Shown here: one piece after another, positions 1 through 14,075 of the stretch | How positions within the stretch are numbered: position 1 is the first letter of the stretch | Layout of the letters: every line of letters starts with the position of its first letter | Virus record (IMG/VR): IMGVR_UViG_2568526635_000004 | Span: 1-15,494 of that record | Direction: 5' to 3' (one strand) | From: a virus | Taxonomy: Duplodnaviria; Heunggongvirae; Uroviricota; Caudoviricetes | Length of the DNA stretch: 15,494 bases | Program-made: the position numbers and the translations under genes | Notes under the pieces: generated by a model | The model's input: only the letters and a program-made list of their open reading frames with translations | What the model was told of the DNA's origin: nothing | The model's database searches: none

Positions 1-12
1 AAGAATTGAAAA

Positions 13-88
13 CCTCAAAACTGACCACACAACTGACCACACATTTCGTTGAAGCTCTACGAACAACGACGAACAATAACAAACAAAA
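13..88. repeat. Left copy of ~76-bp imperfect direct repeat flanking the element (putative attL); contains internal tandem CTGACCACACA x2 and GAACAA motifs phased at 10 bp
   Basis: Sequence 13-88 reappears at 15320-15397 with 2 substitutions and a 2-nt A-run length difference; every gene of the element lies between the two copies. Confidence 0.7.
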
Positions 89-364
89 GGGAAATTTGCT
101 GGCGGTTTTGCTTAACCGTTATCATTTTCCGGCTATCCGCCATGAAGCTGGTGGATGTTTTTTCTATGCAGATTTGCATAGTTTCAAATGGGGTTGGTCG
201 TTATGGGAATTCCCATATCGGCATCACGCCCACCAGCGTGAAGTATTTTTGTAATTTCGCGGGTGTAAAAATTTGACGAGGCGGGCGGTCCCATAAGCAA
301 TAGGTTGTAGGGATTTCGATCCCCCTCCTGAATGCAATTTTTCGTATATATATATACAAAACAG

Positions 365-517
365 TGCGGGTTATGCGGGTTAGCGGGTTATCTTCGCGTG
401 CTAAGTATTTTTTATTCTTTAATATCAATGCCTTAAAAAATAGCGTGTTTAAATATTATCCAAATCGTAACCCGCAAGTCATTCAAAATAACCCGCAAAC
501 ACCCCCCAAATAACCCG
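365..517. repeat. Iteron cluster: 3 tandem forward GCGGGTTA(T) copies (365-372, 374-381, 382-389), an AT-rich spacer, then 3 inverted copies TAACCCGC (467-474, 488-495, 510-517) at ~21-bp spacing; second origin-like or crr-like site
   Basis: Exact 8-mer matches counted directly; the same motif forms the array at 8647-8769 next to the replication gene; a degenerate copy GCGGGTGTA lies at 259-267. Confidence 0.6.
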
Positions 518-763
518 CAAACGCATCAGGAAAGTGGGTCCAGTGATGCCACCGAACGGCTGAATCGGGTAACGTTCTGTTGCCTGGTTGTTGTTTGCGG
601 GTCAGCAATACTGACGCGCAAAGTTAGTTGTATGTGGCTGTGCGTCCACCAGCTACGCCGGAATGGGGTATTCCGTTTCAACGGAACCGGTATGACGAAC
701 ATGATCGCACCTTCTCCCGAAAACGGTGCGACCTCCATAGAGGAAATGCCTATTCAGATCCCC

Positions 764-1118
764 GGTGATTTTCACCATTCAGAATCTGGAGGGTGAGTTT
801 TCCAGTTTTCCCCAATGGGGGATTCTGGAACAATCAACGGGTTAGCGATTAAGCTGGCGAGTAATTAAACTGCGAAAATTTCGTAGTTTGTGACTATCTG
901 AAAGATAGTCGGTTGTTCCGGCCTCAGCCGTTGGCTGTTCCCGAAAATATCAGTCAGTTACGTTAACCGCTGATTTCTGCCTTTGGTGTGAATACCGTCA
1001 CTTTAACCTACGGTAATCGTTCTGCCTCGGTGCGCGTCTCTTCCGTGGTCATTTCGACCATGCACCACACGAAAAGGTGGAGTGTTTATCACCTCCCCTT
1101 CGTGGTGATTTCCACCAT
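764..1118. repeat. Three copies of a 15-bp dyad motif GGT(G/C)ATTT(T/C)(C/G)ACCAT at 764-778, 1047-1061 and 1104-1118; putative protein-binding or hairpin-forming sites
   Basis: Each copy is an inverted repeat (GGTGA/TCACC or GGTCA..GACC); the second and third copies differ by compensatory changes that preserve the dyad; the surrounding ~30 bp is also similar between copies two and three. Confidence 0.5.
810..845. repeat. 36-bp direct repeat, copy 1 (CCCCAATGGGGGATTCTGGAACAATCAACGGGTTAG), contains CCCC-AAT-GGGG hairpin
   Basis: Matches 1218-1253 with 2 mismatches; a second shared segment (TTCCCGAAAATATCA..AGTTAC at ~936-960 versus ~1286-1310) follows each copy. Confidence 0.55.
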
Positions 1119-1217
1119 GCAGCCATCACACCGCCACGCAAAAGGGATTTACCACTACCAGCTATATCCCTCAAATCCACCAATGGTGGAAAAGCCCACA
1201 GCAGGCCGCCCAGCCTC

Positions 1218-1253
1218 CCCCAATGGGGGATTGTGGAAGAATCAACGGGTTAG
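1218..1253. repeat. 36-bp direct repeat, copy 2 (CCCCAATGGGGGATTGTGGAAGAATCAACGGGTTAG)
   Basis: See copy 1 at 810-845. Confidence 0.55.
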
Positions 1254-1303
1254 GCTGGTTTCCCCGATGTTCGCCGCTGGCGAATTTCGAAAATATCAAC
1301 CAG

Positions 1304-1597
1304 TTACCGCCGCAACCGCTCCGGCTTCTTCCACTGGTAAGTCTTTTTCTCGCTCTCCCGGTACATCTGCACGCGGCGACGGTAGGCCAGCAACTCGAGA
1401 ACTCTGGTACGTATATCGCGCATATCCACGCCGCTAAGCTCGATACCGTCACGGCGCATCACCTCAGCCACCACACGCGCGTAATTTTCGGCTATCACGC
1501 TGTCCGGCTGCGTGACCTCCTGTTTGCCTGCTGCCTGGCTGATTCCGGTAACGCGGCGGATTATTTTTAGTAGTTCGGTTTCGCTCATTCTCGTCAT
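1304..1597 (-). CDS. Hypothetical small protein (97 aa) translationally coupled to the end of the large terminase gene
   Basis: ATG at 1597 overlaps the terL stop (ATGA overlap, 1594-1597); alternative ATG at 1588 with GGGG ~10 nt upstream; no recognisable motif; basic C-terminus. Confidence 0.55.
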   Translation of the reverse strand: MTRMSETELLKIIRRVTGISQAAGKQEVTQPDSVIAENYARVVAEVMRRDGIELSGVDMRDIRTRVLELLAYRRRVQMYRESEKKTYQWKKPERLRR

Positions 1598-3255
1598 ACC
1601 CCATCAAACGCCGCAAGCCGCTCTTTGTGGCTGTCGCTCATATCGAATGCAAAATCCTCGTGCTCTGCCTGGAATGTGCCAAACGCCATCAGCGCCGCAA
1701 CGCTCGGGTCTATCTTGTTGGATGATTTTTTCTTGTTCGGCTTGATATTGGCGTTTGCGTCACTCTGCATCACAACATTACTCATTGACCAGGCCAGCAC
1801 CGGATCACCACGATGCACAATCACCTTCCGGTTAACAAAAACTTCGAACGATTTCGCCGCCGGACTGAAACGAAGGTATGTTTGCGGGAACGGCTCCACC
1901 TCAAATCCTGCCCCCTGTAGCTGCGTCCTCAGGTGCGTGGCGTTCCATGTATCGAAGCCCACCAGCCTGATATTGAAATTCTCTGCATCCGCCATGATGT
2001 CATCACGGATACGGTCATAATCAATGCAGTCACCCGGTGTTGTGCGTATCCAGCCCGCCTTTACCCACTGGCGATAGATGGCGCGGTTTTTATTGGCGGG
2101 GTTCTGTAGCTGAAATTCCGGCAGATAGTGACGGGAAACCAGCATAATCTTTTTACCGACCGGAAAGGCATAGCACACGCTGGAAATATCGCTGGTTGAT
2201 GATAAGTCCAGCCCCGCGTAGCACTCCTGCCCGTATAAATCCGCCTCCGCGAACGTTCCGGCGCACTCCGCCCATGCACCGTTACCCATCCACGGCGTAG
2301 CCCCCTGACACCAGATATTGAATCGCTTGGTGAGCATTTCCACCCACTGCGACGGAATACCCCGCGCTTTCTGGATGGTTGAGGCCAGTTTTTCACGATC
2401 GACGGAAACATCGATATTGGGATTCGCCTTTATCCACATCGCCGGATCGTCAACCTCGCTTTCATCATCCAGCTCGTAAATCAGCACGAACATGGATTCG
2501 TTCACCTCTTCACCATCCAGTATCTGGCAGCAATAGTCGTAGTGTTGTTTACAGGCTGAAACAACGTTGCTCCCCGATGTGGTGATGGCAAATAATAATC
2601 CCTCCGGACGCGCCCCCATTCCCAGTTCAAGCGCGGAATAAACCCCGTTGTCAGGGTGCAGGTGATATTCATCCACAATGGCAAGACTCGGGTTTGTACC
2701 TTCAATGGTTGCCGCTTTTGCTGCCAGTGGCTTTAACAGGCTGTTGGTTTTCGGGTGTATCACCTTGTGTGCCTGAATATTTACCCGTTTTCGTAACGGT
2801 CGGGATAAAAGGCACATCTGACGCGCATCATCAAACACGATCCGCGCCTGATCACGACTCACGGCGGCGGTGTAAATATCCTGCTGCCCGTTTTCCATAA
2901 CCAGAAACCAGTTAGCCAGGATAGCAGCGACCGTGGATTTGGCATTTTTTCGCGGTACTTCAATGAATGCGCTGGTGTATTTGCGCCGTCCGGTGGCCTT
3001 AACCTTAAAGCCCAGGATGCACGCAAAGGCGAACTGCTGCCACGGCTCCAGCTCAATGGGGCTACCGCGCATTGCGCCTTTTACGTGCGGGCACACCCTG
3101 GAAAAGGCAATAAACCGCTCCACGACCTCCGGATCGAACGTGTAAAGGGGGTTTTCAAGGTCAGAAAAATACCGTTTAACGGCCTGTTTCAGTCGTTTAC
3201 AGGCCGTAATTTTGCCGTTTTTTACGCCTTCTGCGTACTCATGCCAGGCGGTCAA
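1594..3255 (-). CDS. terL: Phage terminase large subunit (ATPase plus nuclease)
   Basis: 553-aa ORF with Walker A-like segment (PRKNAKST) and overall terminase-like layout; TTG start at 3255 preceded by strong AGGAAGAGGA Shine-Dalgarno; overlaps terS end. Confidence 0.93.
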   Translation of the reverse strand: MTAWHEYAEGVKNGKITACKRLKQAVKRYFSDLENPLYTFDPEVVERFIAFSRVCPHVKGAMRGSPIELEPWQQFAFACILGFKVKATGRRKYTSAFIEVPRKNAKSTVAAILANWFLVMENGQQDIYTAAVSRDQARIVFDDARQMCLLSRPLRKRVNIQAHKVIHPKTNSLLKPLAAKAATIEGTNPSLAIVDEYHLHPDNGVYSALELGMGARPEGLLFAITTSGSNVVSACKQHYDYCCQILDGEEVNESMFVLIYELDDESEVDDPAMWIKANPNIDVSVDREKLASTIQKARGIPSQWVEMLTKRFNIWCQGATPWMGNGAWAECAGTFAEADLYGQECYAGLDLSSTSDISSVCYAFPVGKKIMLVSRHYLPEFQLQNPANKNRAIYRQWVKAGWIRTTPGDCIDYDRIRDDIMADAENFNIRLVGFDTWNATHLRTQLQGAGFEVEPFPQTYLRFSPAAKSFEVFVNRKVIVHRGDPVLAWSMSNVVMQSDANANIKPNKKKSSNKIDPSVAALMAFGTFQAEHEDFAFDMSDSHKERLAAFDGV

Positions 3256-3595
3256 GCTCGTCCTCTTCCTCTGTTTCAGGTGGATTTCTGCGGCGGCTTA
3301 CCGGGTCAAAACCCAGCAAAGAAGCCATTTTGATCATTATTCTTTCTGCGTCAGCCTTTGCGCTCAGGGCGGGGTTTCTGCTCTCGCTGCCCTGACTGTT
3401 AACAATGCTGAACCCGCGCGTGGCAAGGTCTTCGACGGCTTTGCGGTATATGGAGTAGTTAACGCAATACAGCTCCAGATTGCTCCAGTCGGCGGGGGTA
3501 AGGTCTTCCCGTCCGGAAAGCTGGCGCGATTTTTCCTTCCACTGCCTGACCGCGATTTCATCCAGGTAAGCGGGGGCTTTTGGTGGTCTTGCCAT
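3239..3595 (-). CDS. terS: Phage terminase small subunit, P27-family-like
   Basis: N-terminus MARPPKAPAYLDE typical of P27-family small terminases; an in-frame ATG at 3736 with better Shine-Dalgarno would add 47 aa, so the true start is uncertain. Confidence 0.78.
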   Translation of the reverse strand: MARPPKAPAYLDEIAVRQWKEKSRQLSGREDLTPADWSNLELYCVNYSIYRKAVEDLATRGFSIVNSQGSESRNPALSAKADAERIMIKMASLLGFDPVSRRRNPPETEEEDELDRLA

Positions 3596-3883
3596 GTTCT
3601 TTTTTCGCCCAATTATTTTCAAAAAAATTCCCGTGCACAAAAATTTGAGGGGGCGGTCGGTGTCCGGCAGGGACGGTTTCGTCCTGAAAACCACCCCCAC
3701 CCCCTCTGACGGCCTCACCAGCGATTGCGAAAACATTCCATGACCTCGCGGTCACGGTCGGTTAATCGCTTCGCTGTGGTGCGTTTTGTGCGCCCTGTCC
3801 TGTTGGCTTTGTGCTCTGTCTCCTGTGTCTTCCATGTGTCACGCTGCCTTATCAGTCCACGTATCAGCCTGGTTTGCTCCTGT

Positions 3884-4324
3884 TCAGTCATCATCGCCAT
3901 ACATCCAGTCGTTACGGTGTGCCGCCCGTTCTTCCTGCTCGCGATACATGCCCGCTTTACGGTTTGCTTTCGTGGCTGGATCTTCCCGTGTCGTCTTACG
4001 GTTGTGGCACGTCTGGCACAATGCCTGGTGATTCCACTCAGGCCAGAAGAGAACATCACCGCCGCCATTGATGGGAATGATGTGATCCACCACAAGAGCT
4101 GGCGTATAAATCCCCTTAGCCAGACAACGCACGCATAACGGGTTTTTGCTCAGGTACAGGGCGCGGTATTTGTCCCACTGTCGGGAATACCCGCGCGCGC
4201 GGCGGTGTCCCCGTCTGGCATCCTCTGCACGCCATGCAGCCCGCCTGTGCTCTTCACACTTGCCGGACTTCACGCGCTTATTACAGCCAGGCTCAGTGCA
4301 TCGCCTTAATGGTTGCCACGGCAT
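3884..4324 (-). CDS. HNH endonuclease (phage packaging-associated)
   Basis: Cys-rich zinc-finger-like N-terminus (CTEPGCNKRVKSGKC), VVDHIIP and NHQALCQTCHNRKT motifs; ATGA overlap with the upstream connector gene. Confidence 0.9.
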   Translation of the reverse strand: MPWQPLRRCTEPGCNKRVKSGKCEEHRRAAWRAEDARRGHRRARGYSRQWDKYRALYLSKNPLCVRCLAKGIYTPALVVDHIIPINGGGDVLFWPEWNHQALCQTCHNRKTTREDPATKANRKAGMYREQEERAAHRNDWMYGDDD

Positions 4325-4626
4325 CAGTACACCCCTACGTCACGATAAACTGACCAGAGCGCAGAAATAGCCATAGGCAGTTCCGAGTGCTCCACTGGTG
4401 AAACCGCTTCCCGGTTCTCGTACAGGAAAGCGATGTACATCAGGCAACCAACACGCATTGCCGGGGTAAATTCCAGCCCGTCTTCAAAACGTTTCCCGAT
4501 ATGCTTCTGGCAGGCTTCCAGCGCCGCATCGGTATACATTTTCAGAAGTTCGCCTTCACCGGATAAATCATCATCAAGTCGAAGATGTGCCCTGACTTCA
4601 TCAGGTGTAATTCTGGCTTCACTCAT
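4324..4626 (-). CDS. gp6-like head-tail connector / adaptor protein
   Basis: Start MSEARITPDEVRAHLRLDDD resembles gp6-like head-tail connector proteins; ATG at 4626 has AGGGAG Shine-Dalgarno; the six-frame ORF extends to 4713 but that part overlaps the portal gene. Confidence 0.78.
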   Translation of the reverse strand: MSEARITPDEVRAHLRLDDDLSGEGELLKMYTDAALEACQKHIGKRFEDGLEFTPAMRVGCLMYIAFLYENREAVSPVEHSELPMAISALWSVYRDVGVY

Positions 4627-5833
4627 CTTTTCTCCCTTTAATTTCCACAGTCTGTTTCCATGCCTGGCTGAACTCATCACCACCTTCACGCGGCGGCATA
4701 CCCTCACGCTCACGGGCTTCGTTCGGATTCATGATCCCGTTCTTAATCCCTTTCTCATACGTGGCATAACGTTCGGTGGGTGTGGCGCGTAATAAATCGG
4801 CTGAATCAAACTCAACCAGATAACGGGTACCAGGTACGGGAGAAGCCACCAGCAAAGCGGCCTTGATTTGCTGTTCGAAGTTCGCCAGCCACGGGCGCAT
4901 TGTCATGGTCAGAAACGCGCGGCTTGCCTCGCTGAAATTGCTGTAGGTGCTGTTGCTGTATTCCTGCAGAAAAATCGGCGACACGTTGAACATCCTGGCG
5001 ATGTCTTCAATGGAGAAGCGACGGGAGGCCAGCCATTCCGCATCCTGGTTACTCATTCCCAGTTGCTTGTAATCCATGCCCCCTTCAAGGATTGGCGTTT
5101 TTCCGGCATTTTTCGCCCCCTTGTAGCGTTCCAGGGCGTCTAATGCCTGTTTACCTTTCACACCGTCCAGCCATTCGCCTGACGTGATAATCCCTGCCGC
5201 CATCATGCCATCTTTCATAATGCTGGCTCCGTGACGCTGTTGAGCAAGGCCAAGCCCCAGCGCCTCACGGCAAATCGTGACGGGGGAACGCCCCAGAAAG
5301 CCATCATCCGAGGCATAGCGGAGATGCAGAACTTCTTCCTGTAAATACGTGCGCACCGTTCCTGTACAGGGTTCGGTGATGGTATAGCGGTATTTGTGTG
5401 CGCCTGTGCGTTCCGGTACAACACACCCCGGCGCATAAGGATGAAGTGATTTTGGCTGCCCGTCCTGCCCCCACTCAATAACCGCATAGGCGTTACCGTT
5501 CAGCAGGCAGTGACGCATCATTGTGCGTTTAAACTGGTAAGGTGTCTGGCACGAATTAGGCTGCTCATTCAGCAGAATATCTACCGGGTGACTGTCCAGC
5601 CATTCCCGCGCCTCCCTGCCCTTGTCATTACGTACCAGATACAGATAACACGGCATCGTGGCCACCGCCTCAGCGATGACAGAAACCGCATTCATCACTG
5701 CAGGCAATGATTCAGCCGTCCCGGCAGAAACATATTCTCCGGATCCGGTATTCGGTACGCCGGACAGCGCCAGAAAATCATCAATGGACAGGTTACGCTG
5801 CTCGCTTTTTTTACGACTAAAAGGCCACCACAT
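4619..5833 (-). CDS. Phage portal protein, HK97 family
   Basis: ~400-aa ORF with portal-like sequence between protease and connector genes; ATG at 5833 with GGGG Shine-Dalgarno chosen over the upstream TTG at 5923, which would overlap the protease gene by ~90 bp. Confidence 0.88.
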   Translation of the reverse strand: MWWPFSRKKSEQRNLSIDDFLALSGVPNTGSGEYVSAGTAESLPAVMNAVSVIAEAVATMPCYLYLVRNDKGREAREWLDSHPVDILLNEQPNSCQTPYQFKRTMMRHCLLNGNAYAVIEWGQDGQPKSLHPYAPGCVVPERTGAHKYRYTITEPCTGTVRTYLQEEVLHLRYASDDGFLGRSPVTICREALGLGLAQQRHGASIMKDGMMAAGIITSGEWLDGVKGKQALDALERYKGAKNAGKTPILEGGMDYKQLGMSNQDAEWLASRRFSIEDIARMFNVSPIFLQEYSNSTYSNFSEASRAFLTMTMRPWLANFEQQIKAALLVASPVPGTRYLVEFDSADLLRATPTERYATYEKGIKNGIMNPNEAREREGMPPREGGDEFSQAWKQTVEIKGRKDE

Positions 5834-5834
5834 A

Positions 5835-6395
5835 TCACAACCCCGCCAGCTCAGACCAGCGATGACGATTATTTCCTGTCGGACGTAATTCAGGGTGCTG
5901 TGCAAACAACGAACGGTGGGCAATCTCCACGCCAGATTCTGGATAAGCAGGCATCGACGTTATTGTGATTTCACGGAGTTCAGCGGCGGTTACGGTACGC
6001 AGATACGGTTTTTGCGCGATACTCCACTCCTCGCATAATGCGCGAAAACCAAAGCTCATTCCTGTAATGTCGCCACGCTCCACCAGCGTAAGCACATCTT
6101 TTCCAAGCTGGGTATCCGGCGGTGTCAGTTCAAAACGTAACCCGGTGTTATCCTCAGTCAGTACCAGAGTGCCGGATTTGGTGCGCCCCAGCAGTTGGGT
6201 ATAGTCATGCTCATACAGGCAGCGCACATCATTACCCGTCGCCAGATAGTCAGCAAAAGCCCCCGGCGTGAACTGTTCGCGGAATTCGTCCCAGATAATT
6301 TCTGAAAGGCTGTTCCAGCGAACGGCATACCCCACCAGCTTTTTATTGCTGGCGGTCAGTTCAGATGTGCGGATTTCAAAATCGGTATTTTTCAT
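5835..6395 (-). CDS. HK97-family prohead (head maturation) protease
   Basis: 186-aa ORF with typical prohead protease segments (GYAVRWN, HDYTQLLGRT); GGAG Shine-Dalgarno 9 nt upstream of the ATG. Confidence 0.9.
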   Translation of the reverse strand: MKNTDFEIRTSELTASNKKLVGYAVRWNSLSEIIWDEFREQFTPGAFADYLATGNDVRCLYEHDYTQLLGRTKSGTLVLTEDNTGLRFELTPPDTQLGKDVLTLVERGDITGMSFGFRALCEEWSIAQKPYLRTVTAAELREITITSMPAYPESGVEIAHRSLFAQHPELRPTGNNRHRWSELAGL

Positions 6396-6411
6396 CGGTA
6401 TACTCCATAAA

Positions 6412-6438
6412 GCTGAAAAAGGAGGCCGAAGCCTCCTC
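6412..6438 (-). terminator. Rho-independent terminator or attenuator between major capsid and protease genes
   Basis: On the minus strand: AGGAGGC-UUCG-GCCUCCU (7-bp GC-rich stem, UUCG tetraloop) followed by a U-tract; sits 12 nt after the capsid stop codon. Confidence 0.65.
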
Positions 6439-6449
6439 CTTACTCATGA

Positions 6450-7619
6450 CTAGCCAGCTTTCATTTCCAGAATTTTGATGGCGTTTGAATCCACCACACC
6501 ACCGCCCAGATATTTATCCGTGTGGACCTTGTAGAATCCGGGTTCAGTAATGTTGTCCGGTCGGGTGCGAATCCCTGTTACATGATCAACGATGAAATAA
6601 CCACGACTGAAATCGCCAACCGCTAGCGGTGCTTTTCCTGCGCCGATGTCCGGCATGGACTCCAGGCAGTAAACAGGACGACCAAGCAACATATCCGGCG
6701 CACCTTCTTTAAGGCTGTCGCGCCAGATATAATCGCCGTTCTCATTTTTCAGCTTCTGTAGTGTCCCTGCCGTGCCCGAGTTCATCACCCAGACGGCATT
6801 TTTGCGGTATTTCGCTTTCAGCTTGTAGAGAATGTCGATCAGTTCGTCCGCTGTAATGGCGGTTCCACTTGCCGCTACCATTTTTTCAATGGTGCCAAAA
6901 GCGCGGGTTTTGTCACTGGTCGCCGCACGGGTGTAAGCCATGAAGCCTTTCGGCTTGCCGTTACCGTCGCCATTAACAAAATCATCCTCTTCGGTGCTGA
7001 CGAACGTGTCGGCAATTTCGGAGGATAACCAGCCCAGAATATCCACCTCTGAAAAATCCAGGATTTCCTGCGTGGTTTTCGGGTAGGCGTAGATCGGATT
7101 CAGCTTGATGGTTACGCGTTCAATTTTCGGGGTGTTGGTTTCACTGCGTGCGCTGCCTTCTGTGCCTCGTCCTACAGTTGCGCCGCCAGTGGAAACCAGT
7201 TTCTGAAACTCATTTGATTTTGCGGTCTTCACGGTCGCGATCACGCGCATAACACTGTCATCCTGTAGCTGGCGCATGACTTCGCGATCGAGCTCAGGAA
7301 TTACGGTATATCCGCCATCCCTGCCGCTGTCAGTGCTGGTGGACAGTGATCGCACATCTCCGGTTACGATGTAGTTACGCAATTCATCAGATGATAATTT
7401 CTGGATGCCCGTTCCTGGCTTGCTGCGTTCTTCATCAGCCACAGACTCGAGGCGGGAAATTTCTGTGTCGAGAGAATCGGCTTTTGCACGCAGTTCATCA
7501 AACTGTTTGCCCTCGTCATCGTTCAGGCTGCGGTTTTCACTGTCGGCTTTTTCCAGCAGGGATCGCATCTGGTTTTTCAGGGCGGTTTTTTGCTGGCGGA
7601 GTTCGATTAATTTCTTCAT
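6450..7619 (-). CDS. HK97-fold major capsid protein with N-terminal coiled-coil scaffold (delta-like) domain
   Basis: 389-aa ORF; charged coiled-coil-like N-terminal ~100 aa followed by MCP-like body and a C-terminus typical of HK97 capsid proteins. Confidence 0.92.
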   Translation of the reverse strand: MKKLIELRQQKTALKNQMRSLLEKADSENRSLNDDEGKQFDELRAKADSLDTEISRLESVADEERSKPGTGIQKLSSDELRNYIVTGDVRSLSTSTDSGRDGGYTVIPELDREVMRQLQDDSVMRVIATVKTAKSNEFQKLVSTGGATVGRGTEGSARSETNTPKIERVTIKLNPIYAYPKTTQEILDFSEVDILGWLSSEIADTFVSTEEDDFVNGDGNGKPKGFMAYTRAATSDKTRAFGTIEKMVAASGTAITADELIDILYKLKAKYRKNAVWVMNSGTAGTLQKLKNENGDYIWRDSLKEGAPDMLLGRPVYCLESMPDIGAGKAPLAVGDFSRGYFIVDHVTGIRTRPDNITEPGFYKVHTDKYLGGGVVDSNAIKILEMKAG

Positions 7620-7689
7620 GAAGGTTTTCTCGTATTGGTTAAGATTCAGGACGTGAAACCAACACGGAGGGAGCGCCGCCCGACACTCT

Positions 7690-7839
7690 CGGCATCTCGC
7701 AGATCAACCCGGCATCGCGCAGGGGGTCAGGCGGCATTGTGGCGGCTCACGTCTGAGTGCCACACGCCAACATATACATAAAAATCAGTATGTAAACATC
7801 AGCCAGAATCACCGAACAATCTGGAACAACCGCGAACAA
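7690..7839. promoter_or_regulatory. Regulatory region upstream of the head operon: direct repeat CGGCATC(T/G)CGCAG x2 (7690-7702, 7710-7722), dyad TGTGGC-N15-GCCACA (7738-7764) and three GAACAA motifs at exact 10-bp phasing (7814, 7824, 7834)
   Basis: Repeats read directly from the sequence; the region lies between the upstream operon terminator and the capsid start codon. Confidence 0.45.
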
Positions 7840-7856
7840 ATAATTTACAAAACCTG

Positions 7857-7884
7857 AAAAAAAGACCCGGGGTAAATCCGGGCC
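7857..7884 (-). terminator. Rho-independent terminator ending the replication/early operon
   Basis: On the minus strand: 7-bp stem GGCCCGG/CCGGGUC with a 7-nt loop followed by 7 U residues; 10 nt downstream of the 82-aa ORF stop. Confidence 0.75.
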
Positions 7885-7893
7885 TTTATCGCT

Positions 7894-8142
7894 TTACTGT
7901 TTCACGGGATCGCGCATTCTGCGCCTTATTTTCCACAAATATTCGATCATCGCTTCCACCTGCTCACGGTTGGTTGCGAAAATTTCCCCGGTCAGTGAGC
8001 TGCGCAGAAAATCATGATGATCCACAACAAATAACGCATCGGAAGAAAGCAGACGGCGATATTTTTTTGCTGTCGTGGTTTCCAGATCATCAATACCATG
8101 AAACTTTTTATGTTGCTGAACTTCTTCAAATGTCACTGGCAT
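7894..8142 (-). CDS. Hypothetical small protein (82 aa), basic C-terminus
   Basis: ATG at 8142 with AGGGGGA Shine-Dalgarno; followed by a strong terminator; no recognisable motif. Confidence 0.6.
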   Translation of the reverse strand: MPVTFEEVQQHKKFHGIDDLETTTAKKYRRLLSSDALFVVDHHDFLRSSLTGEIFATNREQVEAMIEYLWKIRRRMRDPVKQ

Positions 8143-8159
8143 GTATCCCCCTGTTATCG

Positions 8160-8582
8160 CTAAAAGGGTATGTTATCCCCGTATGGATCATCATTCCCCG
8201 CCTGTTGCTTAGCCCTATTTAGAGCGTCAGTAGCCTGGCCCTGCTGGCCTTTTTTGCCACCAGGTCGCGCCGTTCTGGCACTGATTACGCTGTCTGCGAT
8301 AACCTGCCAGCCCTGCCGCGTTTCCCCGTTCTGGCCTGTCCACTGGCTTACCTGCATGTTACCCGCCACGCTCACCAGCTCGCCTTTGTGGTGTTTTGCC
8401 AGTGCGTCGGCCTGTCTGCCAAACGCCAGAACGGATAACCACATCGTCGCCTGTCCGTCATCTGCCTGATTGCACGGCAGGGGGACAGCCATGCTTGCCA
8501 TAGCCATTTGTGTGCCCTTGCTGGTGGTCTTTAACTGCGGGTCAGCCACCAGCCGCCCGTAAGCTGCTATCTGTGCTGTCAT
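8160..8582 (-). CDS. ssb: Single-stranded DNA-binding protein-like (SSB-like) with acidic C-terminal tail
   Basis: 140-aa ORF with OB-fold-like layout, Gly/Gln-rich linker and a C-terminal DDPYGDNIPF resembling the canonical SSB DDDIPF tail; GGAGAA Shine-Dalgarno. Confidence 0.7.
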   Translation of the reverse strand: MTAQIAAYGRLVADPQLKTTSKGTQMAMASMAVPLPCNQADDGQATMWLSVLAFGRQADALAKHHKGELVSVAGNMQVSQWTGQNGETRQGWQVIADSVISARTARPGGKKGQQGQATDALNRAKQQAGNDDPYGDNIPF

Positions 8583-8646
8583 GCTGTCTGTTCTCCGGTT
8601 TTAACGTTGATAGTTACGCTTGTTTACACCCTTACGGTGAAATTCT

Positions 8647-8769
8647 GCGGGTTATAATCGCACTTTTGCGGGTTATAACTGCCGTTTTGCGGGTTACGTG
8701 CGGGTTATTGATTTCCTTTTTATTCATACAGTTAATGCACTTACACACAGGATAACCCGCATAACCCGC
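8647..8769. repeat. Origin-like iteron array: 4 forward GCGGGTTA copies (8647, 8668, 8689, 8700; 21/21/11-bp spacing), AT-rich spacer, 2 tandem inverted copies (8753-8760, 8762-8769)
   Basis: Exact repeats counted in the sequence; located immediately downstream of the primase/helicase gene, with the AT-rich segment 8709-8750 between the arms. Confidence 0.7.
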
Positions 8770-8793
8770 AACTTTTCACCTCACACAGGGGAG

Positions 8794-10917
8794 TTAATCT
8801 TCTGCCTCAGGCTGGAACATCATCACGTAAAAAACATGCTGCTTACCCCCAATTTTGCCGAGCGCCTTTTTCTTGTAACGGCGATCGTTACCCGCTTCCA
8901 GCATTCCGGCAGCACTCAACGCGCGGGCAAAGTGGGATGGGTTAAATCCCTGTGCGATCTCCCCCTCAAACACATGAGGAAACGTGTAAAAACGGAACTC
9001 ATCATCTTCATTTCTGATACTCCCCTTTCTGTATCCGGCAAGGTCTTTAATCGGTAAATCACGCTCGTCGGTGTTGGGCCACGGAAGGTATCTGCTGAAT
9101 CCGAACGACGCTAAAAAAGCCTCTGCCTGTTCAACCATCTGTTTAAACTCCCTGTTACCCGTGCCGAACTCCTTCACCCAGGCATTAAAATTATGCTGAA
9201 TGGCATCGCGGCATTCCTGCTCATTCCAGCCAGTAACATGACCGGAAAGCACAAGCGCGGCCTCCAGTATGGCGAAACGCTCACCCACGCGGTGGACCTG
9301 CTCGCCGTAGCTCTCCGGTATCAGGTTGCGCCACCGTTCACGGCATGCCCTTACCATGTCCTTTGCCTCCTGCTGGTGGTCTGCCAGCCATTTAACCCAC
9401 TCACGCCCCGCCGCCCCGTGATTTTCTGTCCAGGCATCTTTTAACGCGTCTGCGTGCGCCTTTCCGGTGCTGTATTCGTGAAATTGTGTGGCTTTTTCCA
9501 TCGGCACGTTAAGCAGGCGGACAAGCTGCCCCGCCTTGACTTTTATCCCCTCCGTTTTGAGGAATGTTTCAACGTCCATTTCTCCGGTACTGATTGCCAC
9601 CGTTCGCCAGTGTTTTATCTCCCTGTTGCCGCCGTCCTTCGCCCCCTGTAATTTCCCGGAACCGTTAAACAGCGTATAAGCAGACGTTGACACCTCCCGC
9701 GCGTTTCCGGCCTGGCCTATTTCATCCAGGGGTAACAGCCCGTCGTTGTGTGCCTCTGCCTCGTTGGCGATACCTAACGCTGTGCCGTACCAGGTCAGCC
9801 GCTGCGCGTCCGGCTCTCCCCATAAACTTGATGCGATGTTCTGCGTTGTGGTCTTACCTGCCGATGACTGTTCGAAAAGATGTACCCCGAAGCCGTCAGC
9901 ACCCACCAGCCCGATTAATGGTGCGGATAGCGATACCGCCACACCCAGCATCATGGACGGATTACCACCAGCCAGTCGCGCCACACTGTCGCGCCAGCCC
10001 TCCGCCGTTCCTGCCACGGAATAACCATTAACGGCAGCCGTTTTTCCGGTAAACAGGACTGGCTTTTCGCAATCACCAATGACCGAACCGTCCGGCATGA
10101 TGTACGCGCCAAAATGCCAGCCCGTTGTTGTGCTTAACTGCCATTCCTCATGGTTTCCGCTTAACTGCATCCAGTCAGCCAGGATAGCCCTGTATTTACC
10201 GTTGGTTGTCACGTTCAGTCCGTGGTCTTTCAGCAGCCGCCAGCCGTCACGGTCGCCAATGCCACCGCACGGAACCGCCATCGTGATGACTTCATGGTTT
10301 GCTGGCTTTTTCCAGCGCATCACGCGGTAATGCTCTTTGCCGATTGTCCCCGTTCCCAGTAGCTCAAGCGGGGAGCATAACCACGTTTCAGGCCGGATAA
10401 TTTCGCCTGACTGCTTATCCACTTTTGGCGTTACCCAGAAAACACCATCGGCGCGGCTTTCAACGCGGGGCTTTAATTCATCATCACCCGGGCTTTCTGT
10501 GATTTTTTTCTTTAAGGGCAACACCAGACTTTCCCCGCGCTCGTATTCGTCTTTGAGGCGAGGCAACTGGTCGGATAAATCCGCCGGGCTGGTGTCAGTT
10601 ATCCCCGCGTATTCGTATACGGTCTTCACGCCAGCCACAGCCAGCAACGTGACGATCTGTGTGAGGCTACGTTCAGTGATGTGCCCTGCGCGGTAAATAC
10701 GCACACACTGACGGCTATCATCAATAATTTGATAACCGGTAATATCTTTCAGGTGTTCATCTGACAGAACGACAGGCGGCACATTGTCGGCGGCAATATG
10801 CTTACCTGCCCATTCCTGCCACTCTTTCGCATGGCTCCACGCATCACTACCCGCAAAGATGATAACCTCCGTCATTTTGTCGGCTGGCTGGTGCTTTAAG
10901 TTTGGTGCGCGCTTCAT
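8794..10917 (-). CDS. Replication initiation protein, primase/helicase type (P4 alpha-like, Walker A GKT)
   Basis: 707-aa ORF with a central P-loop (FEQSSAGKTTT) and large flanking domains; ATG at 10917 with GGGGAAAGG Shine-Dalgarno, ATGA overlap with the upstream ORF; the exact family was not verified. Confidence 0.8.
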   Translation of the reverse strand: MKRAPNLKHQPADKMTEVIIFAGSDAWSHAKEWQEWAGKHIAADNVPPVVLSDEHLKDITGYQIIDDSRQCVRIYRAGHITERSLTQIVTLLAVAGVKTVYEYAGITDTSPADLSDQLPRLKDEYERGESLVLPLKKKITESPGDDELKPRVESRADGVFWVTPKVDKQSGEIIRPETWLCSPLELLGTGTIGKEHYRVMRWKKPANHEVITMAVPCGGIGDRDGWRLLKDHGLNVTTNGKYRAILADWMQLSGNHEEWQLSTTTGWHFGAYIMPDGSVIGDCEKPVLFTGKTAAVNGYSVAGTAEGWRDSVARLAGGNPSMMLGVAVSLSAPLIGLVGADGFGVHLFEQSSAGKTTTQNIASSLWGEPDAQRLTWYGTALGIANEAEAHNDGLLPLDEIGQAGNAREVSTSAYTLFNGSGKLQGAKDGGNREIKHWRTVAISTGEMDVETFLKTEGIKVKAGQLVRLLNVPMEKATQFHEYSTGKAHADALKDAWTENHGAAGREWVKWLADHQQEAKDMVRACRERWRNLIPESYGEQVHRVGERFAILEAALVLSGHVTGWNEQECRDAIQHNFNAWVKEFGTGNREFKQMVEQAEAFLASFGFSRYLPWPNTDERDLPIKDLAGYRKGSIRNEDDEFRFYTFPHVFEGEIAQGFNPSHFARALSAAGMLEAGNDRRYKKKALGKIGGKQHVFYVMMFQPEAED

Positions 10918-11228
10918 TTTGCCTTTCCCCGTTCACGAATAATTTCACGTACTGCCTTAATGCGTTCCATTCCTGTAACGCGCATGATTCTGTCGATGTC
11001 GCTTAATTCTGCTGGTGGTGCTTTGCTTACCAGGGTGAACTCCCTGTCAAAGCGCATATGTGACGACACGCAGGGATGCGCATAACCTTCGCGGATATAG
11101 GTCACACGAAAATCATCGACGGTTTTAATCGTTATCGTGCTGCCGTATTTATCCCGGAAAATATCACCGGGGCGGATTTCAGGCCGAGCGTGACCGCTGG
11201 CAGTAAAGCCAGAATTTTTCTTTTTCAT
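10914..11228 (-). CDS. Hypothetical protein (104 aa) coupled to the primase gene
   Basis: ORF with ATG start; its stop overlaps the primase start codon; no recognisable motif. Confidence 0.6.
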   Translation of the reverse strand: MKKKNSGFTASGHARPEIRPGDIFRDKYGSTITIKTVDDFRVTYIREGYAHPCVSSHMRFDREFTLVSKAPPAELSDIDRIMRVTGMERIKAVREIIRERGKAK

Positions 11229-11234
11229 GTTTTT

Positions 11235-11453
11235 TTACTCCAGAGGCAGCTTTTTAGCGGCGAGCTCAATATCAGATGTCAGAGAAACCTGTGTATTTGC
11301 CAGGTCTAACAACAAAGAAATAAGAATTTCTTCTCTGCTATCGGATTTATCGGTGCTAAGGCTGTTCATCCACATATTGACGACTTCCCTGATTTTTTTC
11401 GCAGAGTGCAGGGCTTCAAATGCCAGGTCTTCAATATCATGTTTATTTCGCAT
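11235..11453 (-). CDS. Hypothetical small protein (~72 aa), relatively AT-rich
   Basis: ATG at 11453 preceded by a GGGGG Shine-Dalgarno; the ORF track offers a longer version to 11483; overlaps the stop of the upstream small ORF. Confidence 0.5.
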   Translation of the reverse strand: MRNKHDIEDLAFEALHSAKKIREVVNMWMNSLSTDKSDSREEILISLLLDLANTQVSLTSDIELAAKKLPLE

Positions 11454-11688
11454 AATCGCCCCCGCCATTTTCACAATCAGCAATCAGGATGGCTTTAGCC
11501 TCATTCAGCGCCATATCAGCGGTAAGCTGTGCGTAAGCCAGCGAATGCGGGATTATCGCCCCTGTATATTCCGTCTCTCTGGTAATGTGTTTTTCTGCGG
11601 TTGCTACCGTGCATGAAATATCAATCAGCGCGTGCATCAGCGTTTTGATGGCTTCGGCGGCTGCGTCCGGACGGGTGTTATTGCACAT
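11443..11688 (-). CDS. Hypothetical small protein (~81 aa)
   Basis: ATG at 11688 with GGGGG Shine-Dalgarno, overlapping the stop of the Ash/Icd-like ORF; the six-frame ORF extends further upstream but that part overlaps the neighbouring gene. Confidence 0.5.
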   Translation of the reverse strand: MCNNTRPDAAAEAIKTLMHALIDISCTVATAEKHITRETEYTGAIIPHSLAYAQLTADMALNEAKAILIADCENGGGDYAK

Positions 11689-12217
11689 GGCGCACCCCCT
11701 GACGAATACGGGCGGCGAATACAGCGACACAACCTGACGGGCAATGGTTACGCGCTTCGCGTTCCGTCCAGGCGGTGACGTGGATGATTTGGGACTCTGA
11801 CGCGCCAAAGATGATAAAGCGCCAGATAAAGGCAGTTTGGGAATGTACAAGGGTAGGGATAGTAGCCATGTTGGCAGCCTCTTCGTTAGGTTTAATAAAC
11901 CCACCGCAGGAAACGCCAATTTCGCTGGCGGTGGACTGTACAGGGTTGGCGTAACCGGTTAACGAAGAACCCGGCGCGGATTGCTCCGCCCCCATACAGC
12001 CCACCATTGATAAGGTGTGACTATCCGGCACAAAAAAACACGCAGGGCGCGTGTTGTGCGCTTCGTTAAATACCAGGACGCCAATCCCGGCACCAGATTT
12101 TGCTGGTGCGGGTAAATCATAGCCCTGGCTGGCAGTGGCGATCAACAGGTTTTTTACATCGGGTTTATTCAGGTTGTGCGAGTCCCGCCCTTGCGGGTGT
12201 GTGGTATGATTTAGCAT
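11678..12217 (-). CDS. Ash-family-like protein with C-terminal Icd-like (cell-division-inhibitor-like) segment
   Basis: Segments AKSGAGIGV, FFVPDSH, SMVGCMGAEQ, ANPVQSTASEIGVSCGG recall Ash-family proteins of P4-like elements; the C-terminal FIWRF...TEREAR...FAARI recalls Icd-like peptides (an internal ATG at MATIPTL could yield a ~62-aa product); start at 12217 has a GAGGT Shine-Dalgarno. Assignment is from memory of these families, not from a search. Confidence 0.5.
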   Translation of the reverse strand: MLNHTTHPQGRDSHNLNKPDVKNLLIATASQGYDLPAPAKSGAGIGVLVFNEAHNTRPACFFVPDSHTLSMVGCMGAEQSAPGSSLTGYANPVQSTASEIGVSCGGFIKPNEEAANMATIPTLVHSQTAFIWRFIIFGASESQIIHVTAWTEREARNHCPSGCVAVFAARIRQGVRHVQ

Positions 12218-12314
12218 AGCTACCTCGATACGCTTTCTATCGTTGGTGGTTAGAAGCCCTGCGAGTGGTAACGACACTTGCGGGGCTTTGCATTTATGCA
12301 CCTTGATAACCTCA

Positions 12315-12350
12315 AGGTGTGGCCCACTATATGCTTTAGGTGTGGTCCAC
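12315..12350. promoter_or_regulatory. Two operator-like 13-bp direct repeats AGGTGTGG(C/T)CCAC, each containing the dyad GTGG-N-CCAC, in the divergent control region
   Basis: Repeats at 12315-12327 and 12337-12350; immediately upstream of a TATACT -10-like hexamer (12381-12386) and the plus-strand small gene. Confidence 0.5.
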
Positions 12351-12416
12351 GTCAAGGGTTTTATTTGTGCTTTTTCTGTGTATACTGTCCCCCACCAATC
12401 CAACAGAGGAATAGAA

Positions 12417-12596
12417 ATGGCAACGGGTACAACAAACGCAAAATCACAAGCTCTAAAGGCTCGTGTACCACACGAAATAGTAAACGCCATGGAATCAGTG
12501 AAAGAATCAGGCGAAAGCACATCACAATTCATCATTGCGTCAATGCAAGGCGAGATCAAACGCCGCCAGCGCAGGAAGGCCAAAGAGCAGGAATAG
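12417..12596 (+). CDS. Small ribbon-helix-helix-like (Arc/MetJ-type) DNA-binding protein, candidate repressor
   Basis: 59-aa ORF (MATGTTNAKSQALKARVPHEIVNAMESV...) with GAGGAA Shine-Dalgarno 7 nt upstream; N-terminal basic beta-strand-like segment followed by helices; the only plus-strand gene, divergent from the replication operon. Confidence 0.6.
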   Translation: MATGTTNAKSQALKARVPHEIVNAMESVKESGESTSQFIIASMQGEIKRRQRRKAKEQE

Positions 12597-12729
12597 CCCA
12601 CCAGCAAGCCAGCACATTCACCATAATGACCCTCGGTTAAACCTAGAGTCATTGGTGCAAACCTGACAGATTGCCCACCAGCCAGCAAATCGCTATGATG
12701 TTCGGGCTTATGTTTAGTGTTTTCCCATT

Positions 12730-12758
12730 GGCGACCGCCCCCGGTCGCCTTTGTTTTA
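12730..12758 (+). terminator. Rho-independent terminator on the plus strand
   Basis: Perfect 8-bp stem GGCGACCG/CGGTCGCC with CCCC loop followed by TTTGTTTTA; ~135 nt downstream of the plus-strand small gene. Confidence 0.7.
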
Positions 12759-12776
12759 TGTGCCATATACTCCCCT

Positions 12777-13001
12777 TTACGCTGCCTTGCCTGAATTAAT
12801 GCGATCCCGGCTTTTAACCCATTCCATAACCTCGGACAGCAGCCAACCTACAGAACGACCGCCCAGATTAAGACGTGACGGAAAGCATCCTTTTTTCTCC
12901 AGTTCGTAGCGTGTAGTGCGGCACACTCCTGTTAACTTACGGCATTCATCCTCACGGATTACGCGATCTGATAGTGATTGCGATTGTTTGAGTTGGTTCA
13001 T
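12777..13001 (-). CDS. alpA: AlpA-family transcriptional regulator (excisionase-like helix-turn-helix)
   Basis: SDRVIREDECRKLTGVCRTTRYELEKKGCFPSRLNLGGRSVGWLLSEVMEWV matches the AlpA/phage regulatory protein pattern; ATG at 13001 has a GAGGG Shine-Dalgarno (the ORF track extends to 13037). Confidence 0.85.
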   Translation of the reverse strand: MNQLKQSQSLSDRVIREDECRKLTGVCRTTRYELEKKGCFPSRLNLGGRSVGWLLSEVMEWVKSRDRINSGKAA

Positions 13002-13079
13002 ATAAAAACGCCCTCGTTCGTTATCGTTCGAGAGCATTTTTTATGAGAGAAAATAGGTAAGCAATAAACAAAAAAATAA

Positions 13080-14075
13080 TTATTTTTCTTTATTTATTTT
13101 GTATTCGCTAAGTAATTTATAAATTTTAGGTCTAATTTTTTCTAAAAATGGTATAACTGTTTGTTCAAGCCCGAAACCATCACGCTCACCATTGGGATAA
13201 ATCATGGATGCAAGAACACGCTTTGGGACTCTTCTTTTTGTTCCAAATGTATAAAACTTAGCCAACATCAATAAATCCATAAGCGGTATAATTTTATATT
13301 TTATTATTCTCTCTCTCAAATATCCCCATGCCCGTTTGGGTTCAGGCTCTTCTAAATTGAGTTCTTTTCTCCATATCGGTAATAATTTTTTTAAATCAGA
13401 TAATATCTCATCATCTGTTTTTGTAATATCAAGTGACAAGTGCATTGCATAAGAAAAGCCTTCACTATTAGACTTCATCAATTCAGGCGCAACTGCACTT
13501 AAACTCTCATTTGCCAAAGTAAATAGAAGTTCATCATCATACTCAGATAAATAATCGACATCTTCAGAGCTCAACAATAATGTGCGCTCAGTTCCTGCAC
13601 CCGATGATGGTTTTTTCCAAACATAATTTTCAAGCATTATTCTTCGCAAAGGGACTACGGTTCGAGTTGATGATAACATATGAGGAAAAAAACCTTTATA
13701 CAGTTCTTTTCTTATGTTTTTTTCATAAAACGAATAGTCCGCACCAATATCATCGCCAATAACTGAAGATGCAAATATCTTTCTAAACCGACCAGAAACA
13801 AAAGCAATCTCAGTTTCTATTGATGGAATTTTTGAATTAATAATATCTTTTGTCTCATTCTCATCTTCTGGCAAACTCCTTACATCGATAAAATTCTCAT
13901 ACAAATAAGCCATAAAGTGTTCTTCATCTTCTACAACAAACCCCTTTATAAATCTGTTGTAATCCTCTCTACGCATTAACTGAGTAATCAATTCAAAATC
14001 ACTCATATCGGTAAAAACTTCATACTTCCCCAAATTAAAGCCCAATGCTTCTGCAAAATTTTTAAAAGAAATCAT
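13080..14075 (-). CDS. Hypothetical 331-aa cargo protein, strongly AT-rich, unknown function
   Basis: Uninterrupted ORF whose ATG overlaps the integrase stop (ATGA at 14072-14075); nucleotide composition visibly far more AT-rich than the rest of the element; no recognisable catalytic motif by eye. Confidence 0.8.
   Translation of the reverse strand: MISFKNFAEALGFNLGKYEVFTDMSDFELITQLMRREDYNRFIKGFVVEDEEHFMAYLYENFIDVRSLPEDENETKDIINSKIPSIETEIAFVSGRFRKIFASSVIGDDIGADYSFYEKNIRKELYKGFFPHMLSSTRTVVPLRRIMLENYVWKKPSSGAGTERTLLLSSEDVDYLSEYDDELLFTLANESLSAVAPELMKSNSEGFSYAMHLSLDITKTDDEILSDLKKLLPIWRKELNLEEPEPKRAWGYLRERIIKYKIIPLMDLLMLAKFYTFGTKRRVPKRVLASMIYPNGERDGFGLEQTVIPFLEKIRPKIYKLLSEYKINKEK

Follow-up and report, generated by a model that had tools for sequence, protein, structure and literature searches.

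The window, by which we mean the whole 15,494-bp stretch of DNA analysed here, carries all of its long open reading frames on the minus strand. The genes are given below from the integrase side towards the left end.

14072-15292, minus strand: integrase.
13080-14075, minus strand: 331-aa ORF of low GC content, adjoining the integrase gene.
8794-10917, minus strand: DUF927 primase-type ORF.
8160-8582, minus strand: SSB.
6450-7619, minus strand: HK97-fold major capsid protein (PF05065).
Between the capsid and portal genes, minus strand: S78 prohead protease (PF04586).
Between the protease and connector genes, minus strand: portal (PF04860).
4324-4626, minus strand: single head-tail connector (Phage_connect_1), between the portal and HNH genes.
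3884-4324, minus strand: HNH endonuclease, 146 aa (Pfam HNH, E=8.8e-10).
3715-3891, minus strand: small conserved gene, 58 aa (61 aa, 3715-3900, in the PGAP call), matching PHROG phrog_3173 over its full length (E=5e-27).
3239-3595, minus strand: terS, small terminase of the P27/Terminase_4 family, 118 aa (Pfam Terminase_4, E=4e-23).
1594-3255, minus strand: terL, large terminase, 553 aa (TerL_nuclease, E=1.9e-52; TerL_ATPase, E=4.4e-26; PF03354/PF20441).
1304-1597, minus strand: 97-aa ORF directly 3' of terL (PHROG 1561, E=1e-48).

The window is a capsid-forming phage-inducible island (cf-PICI) of the EcCIEDL933 family, a 15-kb phage satellite. With its integrase and replication module it falls within the size range of these islands (~10-18 kb), and it has a packaging module of its own, in which capsid, protease, portal, connector, HNH, TerS and TerL all gave Pfam matches. 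The TerS scored 82 bits against the Terminase_4 profile (cut-off 24.7) and bears the PGAP name 'phage terminase small subunit P27 family'. The same two TerL Pfam families are matched by HK97 gp2, and the HNH protein (PHROG 144, E=3.6e-45) cross-matched the same HNH PHROGs as HK97 gp74. We took the annotations of the shared part from a 99.5%-identical copy in APEC37, which lies as an island in the clpS-cspD interval; among the annotated genes of that copy there were none for tail or lysis functions, a result that applies to the window outside its specific right end (11678-14075). Among 5,426 complete E. coli genomes, 515 had the HNH-terS region. With the whole window as query, the best match in E. 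coli covered only 83%, indicating that the integrase-side end is variant-specific. The stretch holding the 331-aa ORF has a GC content of 32-36%, compared to ~52% for the island, and the ORF at 13080-14075 is probably horizontally acquired cargo. At the other end, positions 1-1300 have no long conserved ORF and a lower GC content (41-50%), and this segment probably holds the att junction of the island. The 97-aa ORF after terL is kept in relatives, at 93-94 aa in APEC37 and E. fergusonii.

The island resembles the EcCIEDL933 type in its size (~15.5 kb) and in its gene order, which runs from int through the replication genes, capsid, protease, portal and connector to hnh, terS and terL, with no tail genes among those annotated. 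The hnh-terS-terL order of cf-PICIs is explicit in Alqurainy et al. (bioRxiv 10.1101/2022.09.08.507074). The O157:H7 copies, which are of the EcCIEDL933 type, are ~84.5% identical to the window in the HNH-terS region, whereas the integrase and the cargo end of the window differ from those of the EDL933 type. The window also has one connector gene where EDL933-type and E. fergusonii islands (compared over L002 1485-1885 and L395 8946-9577) have two, a head-closure gene (PF05521) and a connector; He et al. 2025 report that the choice of helper tails depends on these adaptor and connector genes. Helper induction and transfer in the island's own small capsids with helper tails have been established experimentally only for EcCIEDL933 and a few others, and this particular island is presumably active as well.

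We determined the start of terS by aligning the window with seven relatives of 72-99% identity. ATGGCAAGACCACC was conserved, and the indels upstream of 3595 were not multiples of three. A start at 3736 was rejected, as the in-frame extension was broken by stops or a frameshift in six of the seven relatives. The broken extension and the out-of-frame indels upstream place the terS start at 3595. PGAP called the 118-aa TerS in 8/8 annotated relatives.

The segment between the HNH gene and terS contains the small gene at 3715-3891, whose start codon overlaps the HNH stop (ATGACTGA). The ORF was open in every relative, through an in-frame 21-nt indel, and its changes were concentrated at third codon positions. 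The dN/dS ratio was 0.12-0.37 in seven of eight pairs, the eighth being a near-identical pair with too few changes. The 58-aa product is basic and has two conserved blocks, ..LIRGLIRQRD.. and ..RDREVMECFRNR; its gene is the last before the cos region, that is, the last of the packaged genome. We recovered only Escherichia 'hypothetical proteins' in a homology search with the small protein, and a tblastn search against phage records gave no match. The gene is absent from the Pasteurella satellite Pmp8, from SfI and from HK97, and Acinetobacter phage AbIPP1 has an unrelated 72-aa ORF in its position. An E. fergusonii contig of 15.5 kb that carries the small gene was considered as a cos-ended genome and set aside, its ends not being at cos. 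Mutating each packaging-module gene of EcCIEDL933 abolished transfer, the one exception being 'hypothetical gene 1792', mutation of which reduced transfer severely (10.1101/2022.09.08.507074). The small protein could be the product of this gene; in the accessible text of the cf-PICI papers, a small gene between hnh and terS is otherwise not mentioned.

Because 3715-3891 is coding, the non-coding segment is confined to the 119 nt at 3596-3714. The first-pass annotation had placed the HNH gene directly upstream of terS and terL and had proposed a noncoding stretch of 3596-3883 for a terS start at 3595, or of 3737-3883 for a start at 3736. The three genes are real and lie on the minus strand, and the start at 3595 on which the longer stretch was premised is right; the small gene intervenes, however, both extents are wrong, and the supposedly noncoding 3737-3883 is mostly coding.

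We analyzed the 119-nt region in 148 distinct variants from 236 loci and found that it consists of conserved blocks separated by a variable spacer. Three elements are conserved, namely a G-box at 3681-3706, a C-rich 10-mer at 3650-3659 and, at 3613-3649, a T-tract block. The features are as follows, with distances counted from the predicted cut described below.

3596-3714, no strand: whole non-coding region, the likely cos region, with conserved blocks across 148 distinct variants (236 loci).
3613-3638, minus strand: GTGCACGGGAATTTTTTTGAAAATAA, a block that TerS may recognise, located +12 to +37 from the predicted left end.
3639-3649, minus strand: CTCAAATTTTT, the 11 bases with which the packaged left end is predicted to begin and where the contig start of a relative aligns.
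3650-3659, minus strand: predicted 10-nt cohesive end, CGACCGCCCC on the gene strand, from the contig gap, SfI and HK97.
3660-3680, no strand: variable spacer, the least conserved stretch of the region, holding the loop and one arm of a hairpin.
3681-3706, minus strand: G-box GAGGGGGTGGGGGTGGTTTTCAGGAC, -57 to -32 from the predicted right end.

The gene-strand consensus of the 148 variants, numbered from the predicted cut in an alignment whose anchor covers only +2 to +11, reads gGGGtgGGGG..GTTTT.A.Gac at about -54 to -32, then, after the variable spacer, ACC..ccgCC.C up to -1, and CTCAAATTTTT..GCaCgG..aTTTTTTtgAaAatAa from +1 to +37. The G-box was at least 95% conserved in an alignment that was not anchored on the box. 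The same conserved blocks are carried by the Pasteurella satellite Pmp8, whose TerS is 61% identical to that of the window, and the score of the local alignment of the region between the window and Pmp8 was beaten by 0/500 shuffles.

The predicted position of the cut comes from a relative recovered as a full-length linear contig. The 15,518-bp metagenomic viral contig IMGVR_UViG_3300022664_000095, present in two pieces (L181, positions 1-14263, and L094, positions 14264-15518), contains the complete island permuted so that it runs from terS to the HNH gene and the small gene. Its TerS is identical to that of the window at 102 of 118 residues (86%), and the DNA is ~75-78% identical. The contig starts with CTCAAATTTTTACGCACGG (first bases CTCAAATTTTT), position 1 aligning to window position 3649, ends in ...GCAAGGCAC (also given as ...CAGGACAAAACCCAAGCCGCAAGGCAC), and is without a terminal repeat. 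Integrated relatives read GGCAC-CACCCGCCCC-CTCAAATTTTT across the contig junction, in a block without length variation. As the integrated relatives are invariant in length here, exactly 10 nt (CACCCGCCCC) are missing between the contig ends, and the counterpart of this 10-mer in the window is CGACCGCCCC at 3650-3659. End-polishing of 3' overhangs in library preparation yields a gap, not a duplication. The cohesive end at 3650-3659 is therefore probably a 3' overhang, and we infer its polarity and exact length in this element. The end mapping rests on this one metagenomic contig of a relative with ~75-78% DNA identity rather than on the element's own DNA. The ends of this one relative with linear ends were neither random nor located in the left non-coding region, the two outcomes that had been named beforehand as speaking against a packaging site at this locus.

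We attempted to recover further linear contigs ending at the site, but two scans of IMG/VR and one metagenome scan gave only integrated or internal copies; the pattern used for the metagenome scan was too degenerate and its matches were mostly unrelated DNA. The apparent ends of L030, L057, L117, L130, L153 and L176 were rejected as storage-chunk boundaries rather than contig ends. A further record, LR881103.1 (vB_KppS-Ant, 16,548 bp), has its first base 22 nt ahead of terS and its last within the G-box block; it omits ~73 nt centred on the predicted cut, which is consistent with the mapped site and not precise. This record, named 'Escherichia phage vB_KppS-Ant', is a cf-PICI recovered from an induced lysate, and terL is followed in it by a gene of 2.3 kb with the annotation of a tape measure protein.

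The record ends of HK97, D3 and EPP-1 and the ends of SfI share the register of the predicted cut. Run-off sequencing of virion DNA of the Shigella phage SfI revealed a 10-nt gap, TGCCCGCCCC (Sun et al. 2013, PMC3636060); these are the last 10 nt of the SfI record, they align with CGACCGCCCC of the window, and they are preceded by CCGGAC, as in the window (CCGGACAC-CGACCGCCCC). SfI further resembles the island in its Terminase_4 TerS (36% identity), in having the HNH gene as the last gene before cos, and in a G-box, GGGGAGGGGCGGG, at -54 to -40. Its left end has a T-run followed by CGCGAAAAATGAAATTTAA, for which the window counterpart is CGGGAATTTTTTTGAAAATAA, and both SfI and EPP-1 carry CGCGAAAAATGAAATTTAA at the position of the 3613-3638 block of the window. 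In contrast to the island, SfI is a complete 38-kb temperate phage with no small gene between the HNH gene and cos, and the two sequences differ enough that cross-recognition cannot be assumed. The assembly of EPP-1 was corrected with PhageTerm by its authors (PMC11043334), and its record begins with CCCCAATTTTT, 5 nt before ATTTTT, in the register of the relative's contig. Taken from homology to SfI and from the contig gap, unique ends with 3' cohesive overhangs of ~9-11 nt are thus indirectly supported for the island.

HK97 shares with the island the order HNH-cos-terS-terL across its circularised junction and a TerL, portal, S78 protease and major capsid of the same Pfam families; it differs in being without a phrog_3173 gene. 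Its cohesive end is a 10-nt 3' overhang (PMC9410871, Fung et al. 2022), and the minimal binding site of its TerS lies at +15 to +29 and consists of G plus an A-tract (PMC11331095, Chechik et al. 2024). The HK97 sequence has a G9 run at -51 to -43 and G plus a T-tract at the TerS site, +15 to +29. When the HK97 junction and the window were compared without gaps, each anchored at its own end, 51 of 125 positions were identical, the best of 121 offsets, and this end-anchored comparison placed CACGGGAATTTTTTT of the window at the position of the HK97 TerS site, +15 to +29. The unanchored local alignment of the HK97 cos with the window was not significant, as 77 of 500 shuffles scored as well. A search of the circularised HK97 genome with an nhmmer profile built on the cf-PICI cos gave no match at cos. 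We therefore treat the HK97 comparison as one of shared architecture and not as demonstrated homology. The TerS proteins of the window and HK97 had no detectable similarity by BLASTP (E=4), so that the HK97 TerS site is transferred by analogy only, and on that analogy TerS would bind at 3613-3638. The proposal of the first-pass annotation that the locus is an HK97-style, HNH-assisted cos module is supported by the contig ends of the relative and by the register of SfI, HK97, D3 and EPP-1. The HNH gene adjoins the terminase genes across cos, with the small gene and the cos region between them.

We considered whether the cut falls at the mapped place with a cohesive end of 9 nt or an offset of 1-2 nt. 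The end of the isolate contig L071 is displaced inwards by 1 nt relative to that of the metagenomic contig, suggesting 9 nt and not 10. The 3' ends of D3 and of the cluster E mycobacteriophages are 9 nt long, which likewise speaks for the shorter length. The 10-nt gap of the metagenomic contig matches, on the other hand, both the 10-nt gap of SfI and the 10-nt overhang of HK97, and we regard a 9-nt or slightly shifted end as rather unlikely, though with a real chance of being correct.

We further analyzed the G-box by searching the region against phage records with blastn, which gave an exact 22-mer, GTCAGAGGGGGTGGGGGTGGTT (window 3710 to 3689), in 152 Mycobacterium phages of ~75 kb, always near the right end. 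In Murphy (NC_021305.1, 75300-76179) the 22-mer ends 38 nt before the genome end, compared to 39 nt before the predicted end in the window. Murphy and the other cluster E-type mycobacteriophages (Kostyavirus) have an HNH gene as the last gene and a Terminase_4 TerS, as in the system of the window. They differ in the host phylum, in their 75-kb genome, in their terminal nucleotides (...CGCTTGTCA), in the location of TerS ~1 kb from the left end, and in having no similarity to the window downstream of the cut.

We compared the last 90 nt of eight records in which the HNH gene either comes last in the genome or has a known association with the terminase. A box of at least 8/10 G, or of 8/10 C where the G-rich strand is the other one, was located between -56 and -40 in 8/8 of these HNH-linked cos phages, as a G-box in HK97, D3, EPP-1, SfI, Murphy and Gordonia phage Mcklovin and as a C-box in Lactococcus sk1 and S. 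thermophilus CHPC919. For D3, Mcklovin, Murphy, sk1 and CHPC919, we took the ends of the linear GenBank records as the genome ends. The box of the window is at -57 to -42. Outside this position, the density of such boxes in HK97 and the window is only 0.25-0.4 per kb, and the last 100 nt of the two controls, lambda and P2, contained none. The location of the box at a shared distance from the ends supports the predicted cut position. Our literature search for a described G-box in HNH cos sites, whose range ended short of the older HK97, D3 and sk1 cos papers, found nothing relevant. The C-rich cohesive-end region GAGGGGGCGG (3647-3656) and the G-box CCACCCCCTC (3697-3706) are inverted repeats, 90% complementary and 40 nt apart, and the same relation is present in SfI (GGGGCGGG vs CCCGCCCC); speculatively, the repeats hint at symmetric recognition.

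The conserved blocks could instead be transcription or translation signals of terS-terL, such as a promoter, terminator or leader, with the packaging site elsewhere, for example in the gene-poor left end. The region lies directly upstream of terS and is A/T-rich near the start codon, a weak terminator-like match is present at 3697-3712, and the left non-coding region was evidently the main candidate of the first-pass annotation. Against this, a search of the gene strand gave no sigma-70-like promoter, and the G-box is without a complementary upstream arm. The blocks moreover keep fixed distances to genome ends, both to those determined physically (SfI and HK97) and to those of linear records (D3, EPP-1 and the mycobacteriophages), and the full-length linear contig of the relative ends at the 3649/3660 site and nowhere else. 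We consider an exclusively regulatory role highly improbable, and a dual role of the region as cos and leader may apply. The segment had been put forward as an alternative packaging-site candidate; a packaging site is supported there, as the best-supported site rather than an alternative.

The GGACG-GTTT-CGTCC hairpin singled out in the first-pass annotation exists (3671-3684), as do the G-rich runs reported with it (G/C runs at 3649-3653, 3694-3698 and 3700-3704). A role of the hairpin as a recognition or cleavage element is suggested by its position, as it falls within the cos region and separates the G-box from the predicted cut, and by its presence in the minimum-energy fold of the 119-nt strand (z = -2.4). 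The structure is nevertheless neither conserved nor above chance: all five pairs were present in only 13 of the 148 variants, 94 variants retained 0-2 pairs, and there was no consistent compensatory pattern. Perfect 5-bp hairpins with loops of 3-6 nt numbered 86 in the window compared to 57 +/- 9 in shuffles. Of its two arms, one belongs to the variable spacer, where conservation is lowest, and the other is within the conserved CAGGAC of the G-box block. A function for this hairpin is accordingly very hard to credit. A second possible hairpin, GTCC/GGAC, was also rejected, all four pairs being present in only 19/148 variants.

Headful (pac) packaging starting near terS without unique cohesive ends is very improbable. 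It would have a precedent in the many PICIs and SaPIs that encode a TerS of their own and package by the pac route (introduction of 10.1101/2022.09.08.507074). Against it, cos systems are recognised by an HNH gene next to those of the terminase in combination with the TerL, portal, protease and capsid families that HK97 also has (Kala et al. 2014, as cited in 10.1101/2022.09.08.507074). The contig of the relative is moreover of unit length with a 10-nt gap rather than terminal redundancy, and cohesive-end concatemers were reported for another cf-PICI (10.1101/2025.02.11.637232).

We conclude with good confidence that 3596-3714 is the cos packaging site of this cf-PICI, our confidence being lower for the details. 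In the mechanism we propose, HNH-assisted cleavage and the position of TerS are taken from the HK97 work, and the requirement for the packaging genes from the genetics of EcCIEDL933. The island would excise and replicate to concatemers, which its own TerS, TerL and HNH would cut at 3596-3714. If it acts as in HK97, TerS would recognise the CACGGGAATTTTTTT block, which falls within 3613-3638 at about +15 to +29, just inside the left end. A staggered cut by TerL and HNH would bracket 3650-3659 (CGACCGCCCC), probably leaving 10-nt 3' overhangs, so that the left end would start at 3649 (CTCAAATTTTT...) and the right end would stop at ~3660. Packaging would then proceed from terS-terL via the attP junction to the side of the HNH gene and the small gene, and the next cos would terminate it. 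The G-box, at about -57 to -32, might serve as a second recognition element, either positioning the HNH/TerL nuclease or acting in cosQ-like termination.

A wider role of the G-box is a tentative suggestion, and we hold it to be possible but doubtful. The box has the approximate consensus GGGGTGGGGG, is present in complementary form in Firmicutes phages, and keeps a fixed distance of ~40-56 nt on the upstream side of the cut. It might be an undescribed, near-universal recognition element of HNH-assisted cos sites in systems as far apart as E. coli satellites and mycobacteriophages, supplying either the missing specificity determinant by which the otherwise non-specific HNH/TerL nucleases are positioned or a cosQ-like termination signal, and the phrog_3173 protein might be a satellite-specific accessory factor acting there.

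The probable cos site is of the known SfV/SfI and HK97-like type, and the finding is largely ordinary. Both the hnh-terS-terL layout and HNH-assisted cos cleavage are published, and there is consequently little new in the arrangement first noticed. A nucleotide-level cos site is absent from the accessible text of the cf-PICI papers. The prediction at this level for a cf-PICI, with the cut at 3650-3659 and the flanking G-box and T-tract, would be usable for constructing packageable plasmids and would help to recognise complete cf-PICI genomes in viromes. It also allows one to ask why island and helper packaging are mutually exclusive. The annotation of the island is corrected in the start of terS and in the conserved small gene that adjoins cos. 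The presence of a G-box at a fixed distance from the cut in very distant HNH-linked cos phages provides a testable candidate for how non-specific HNH/TerL nucleases may achieve site-specific cutting.
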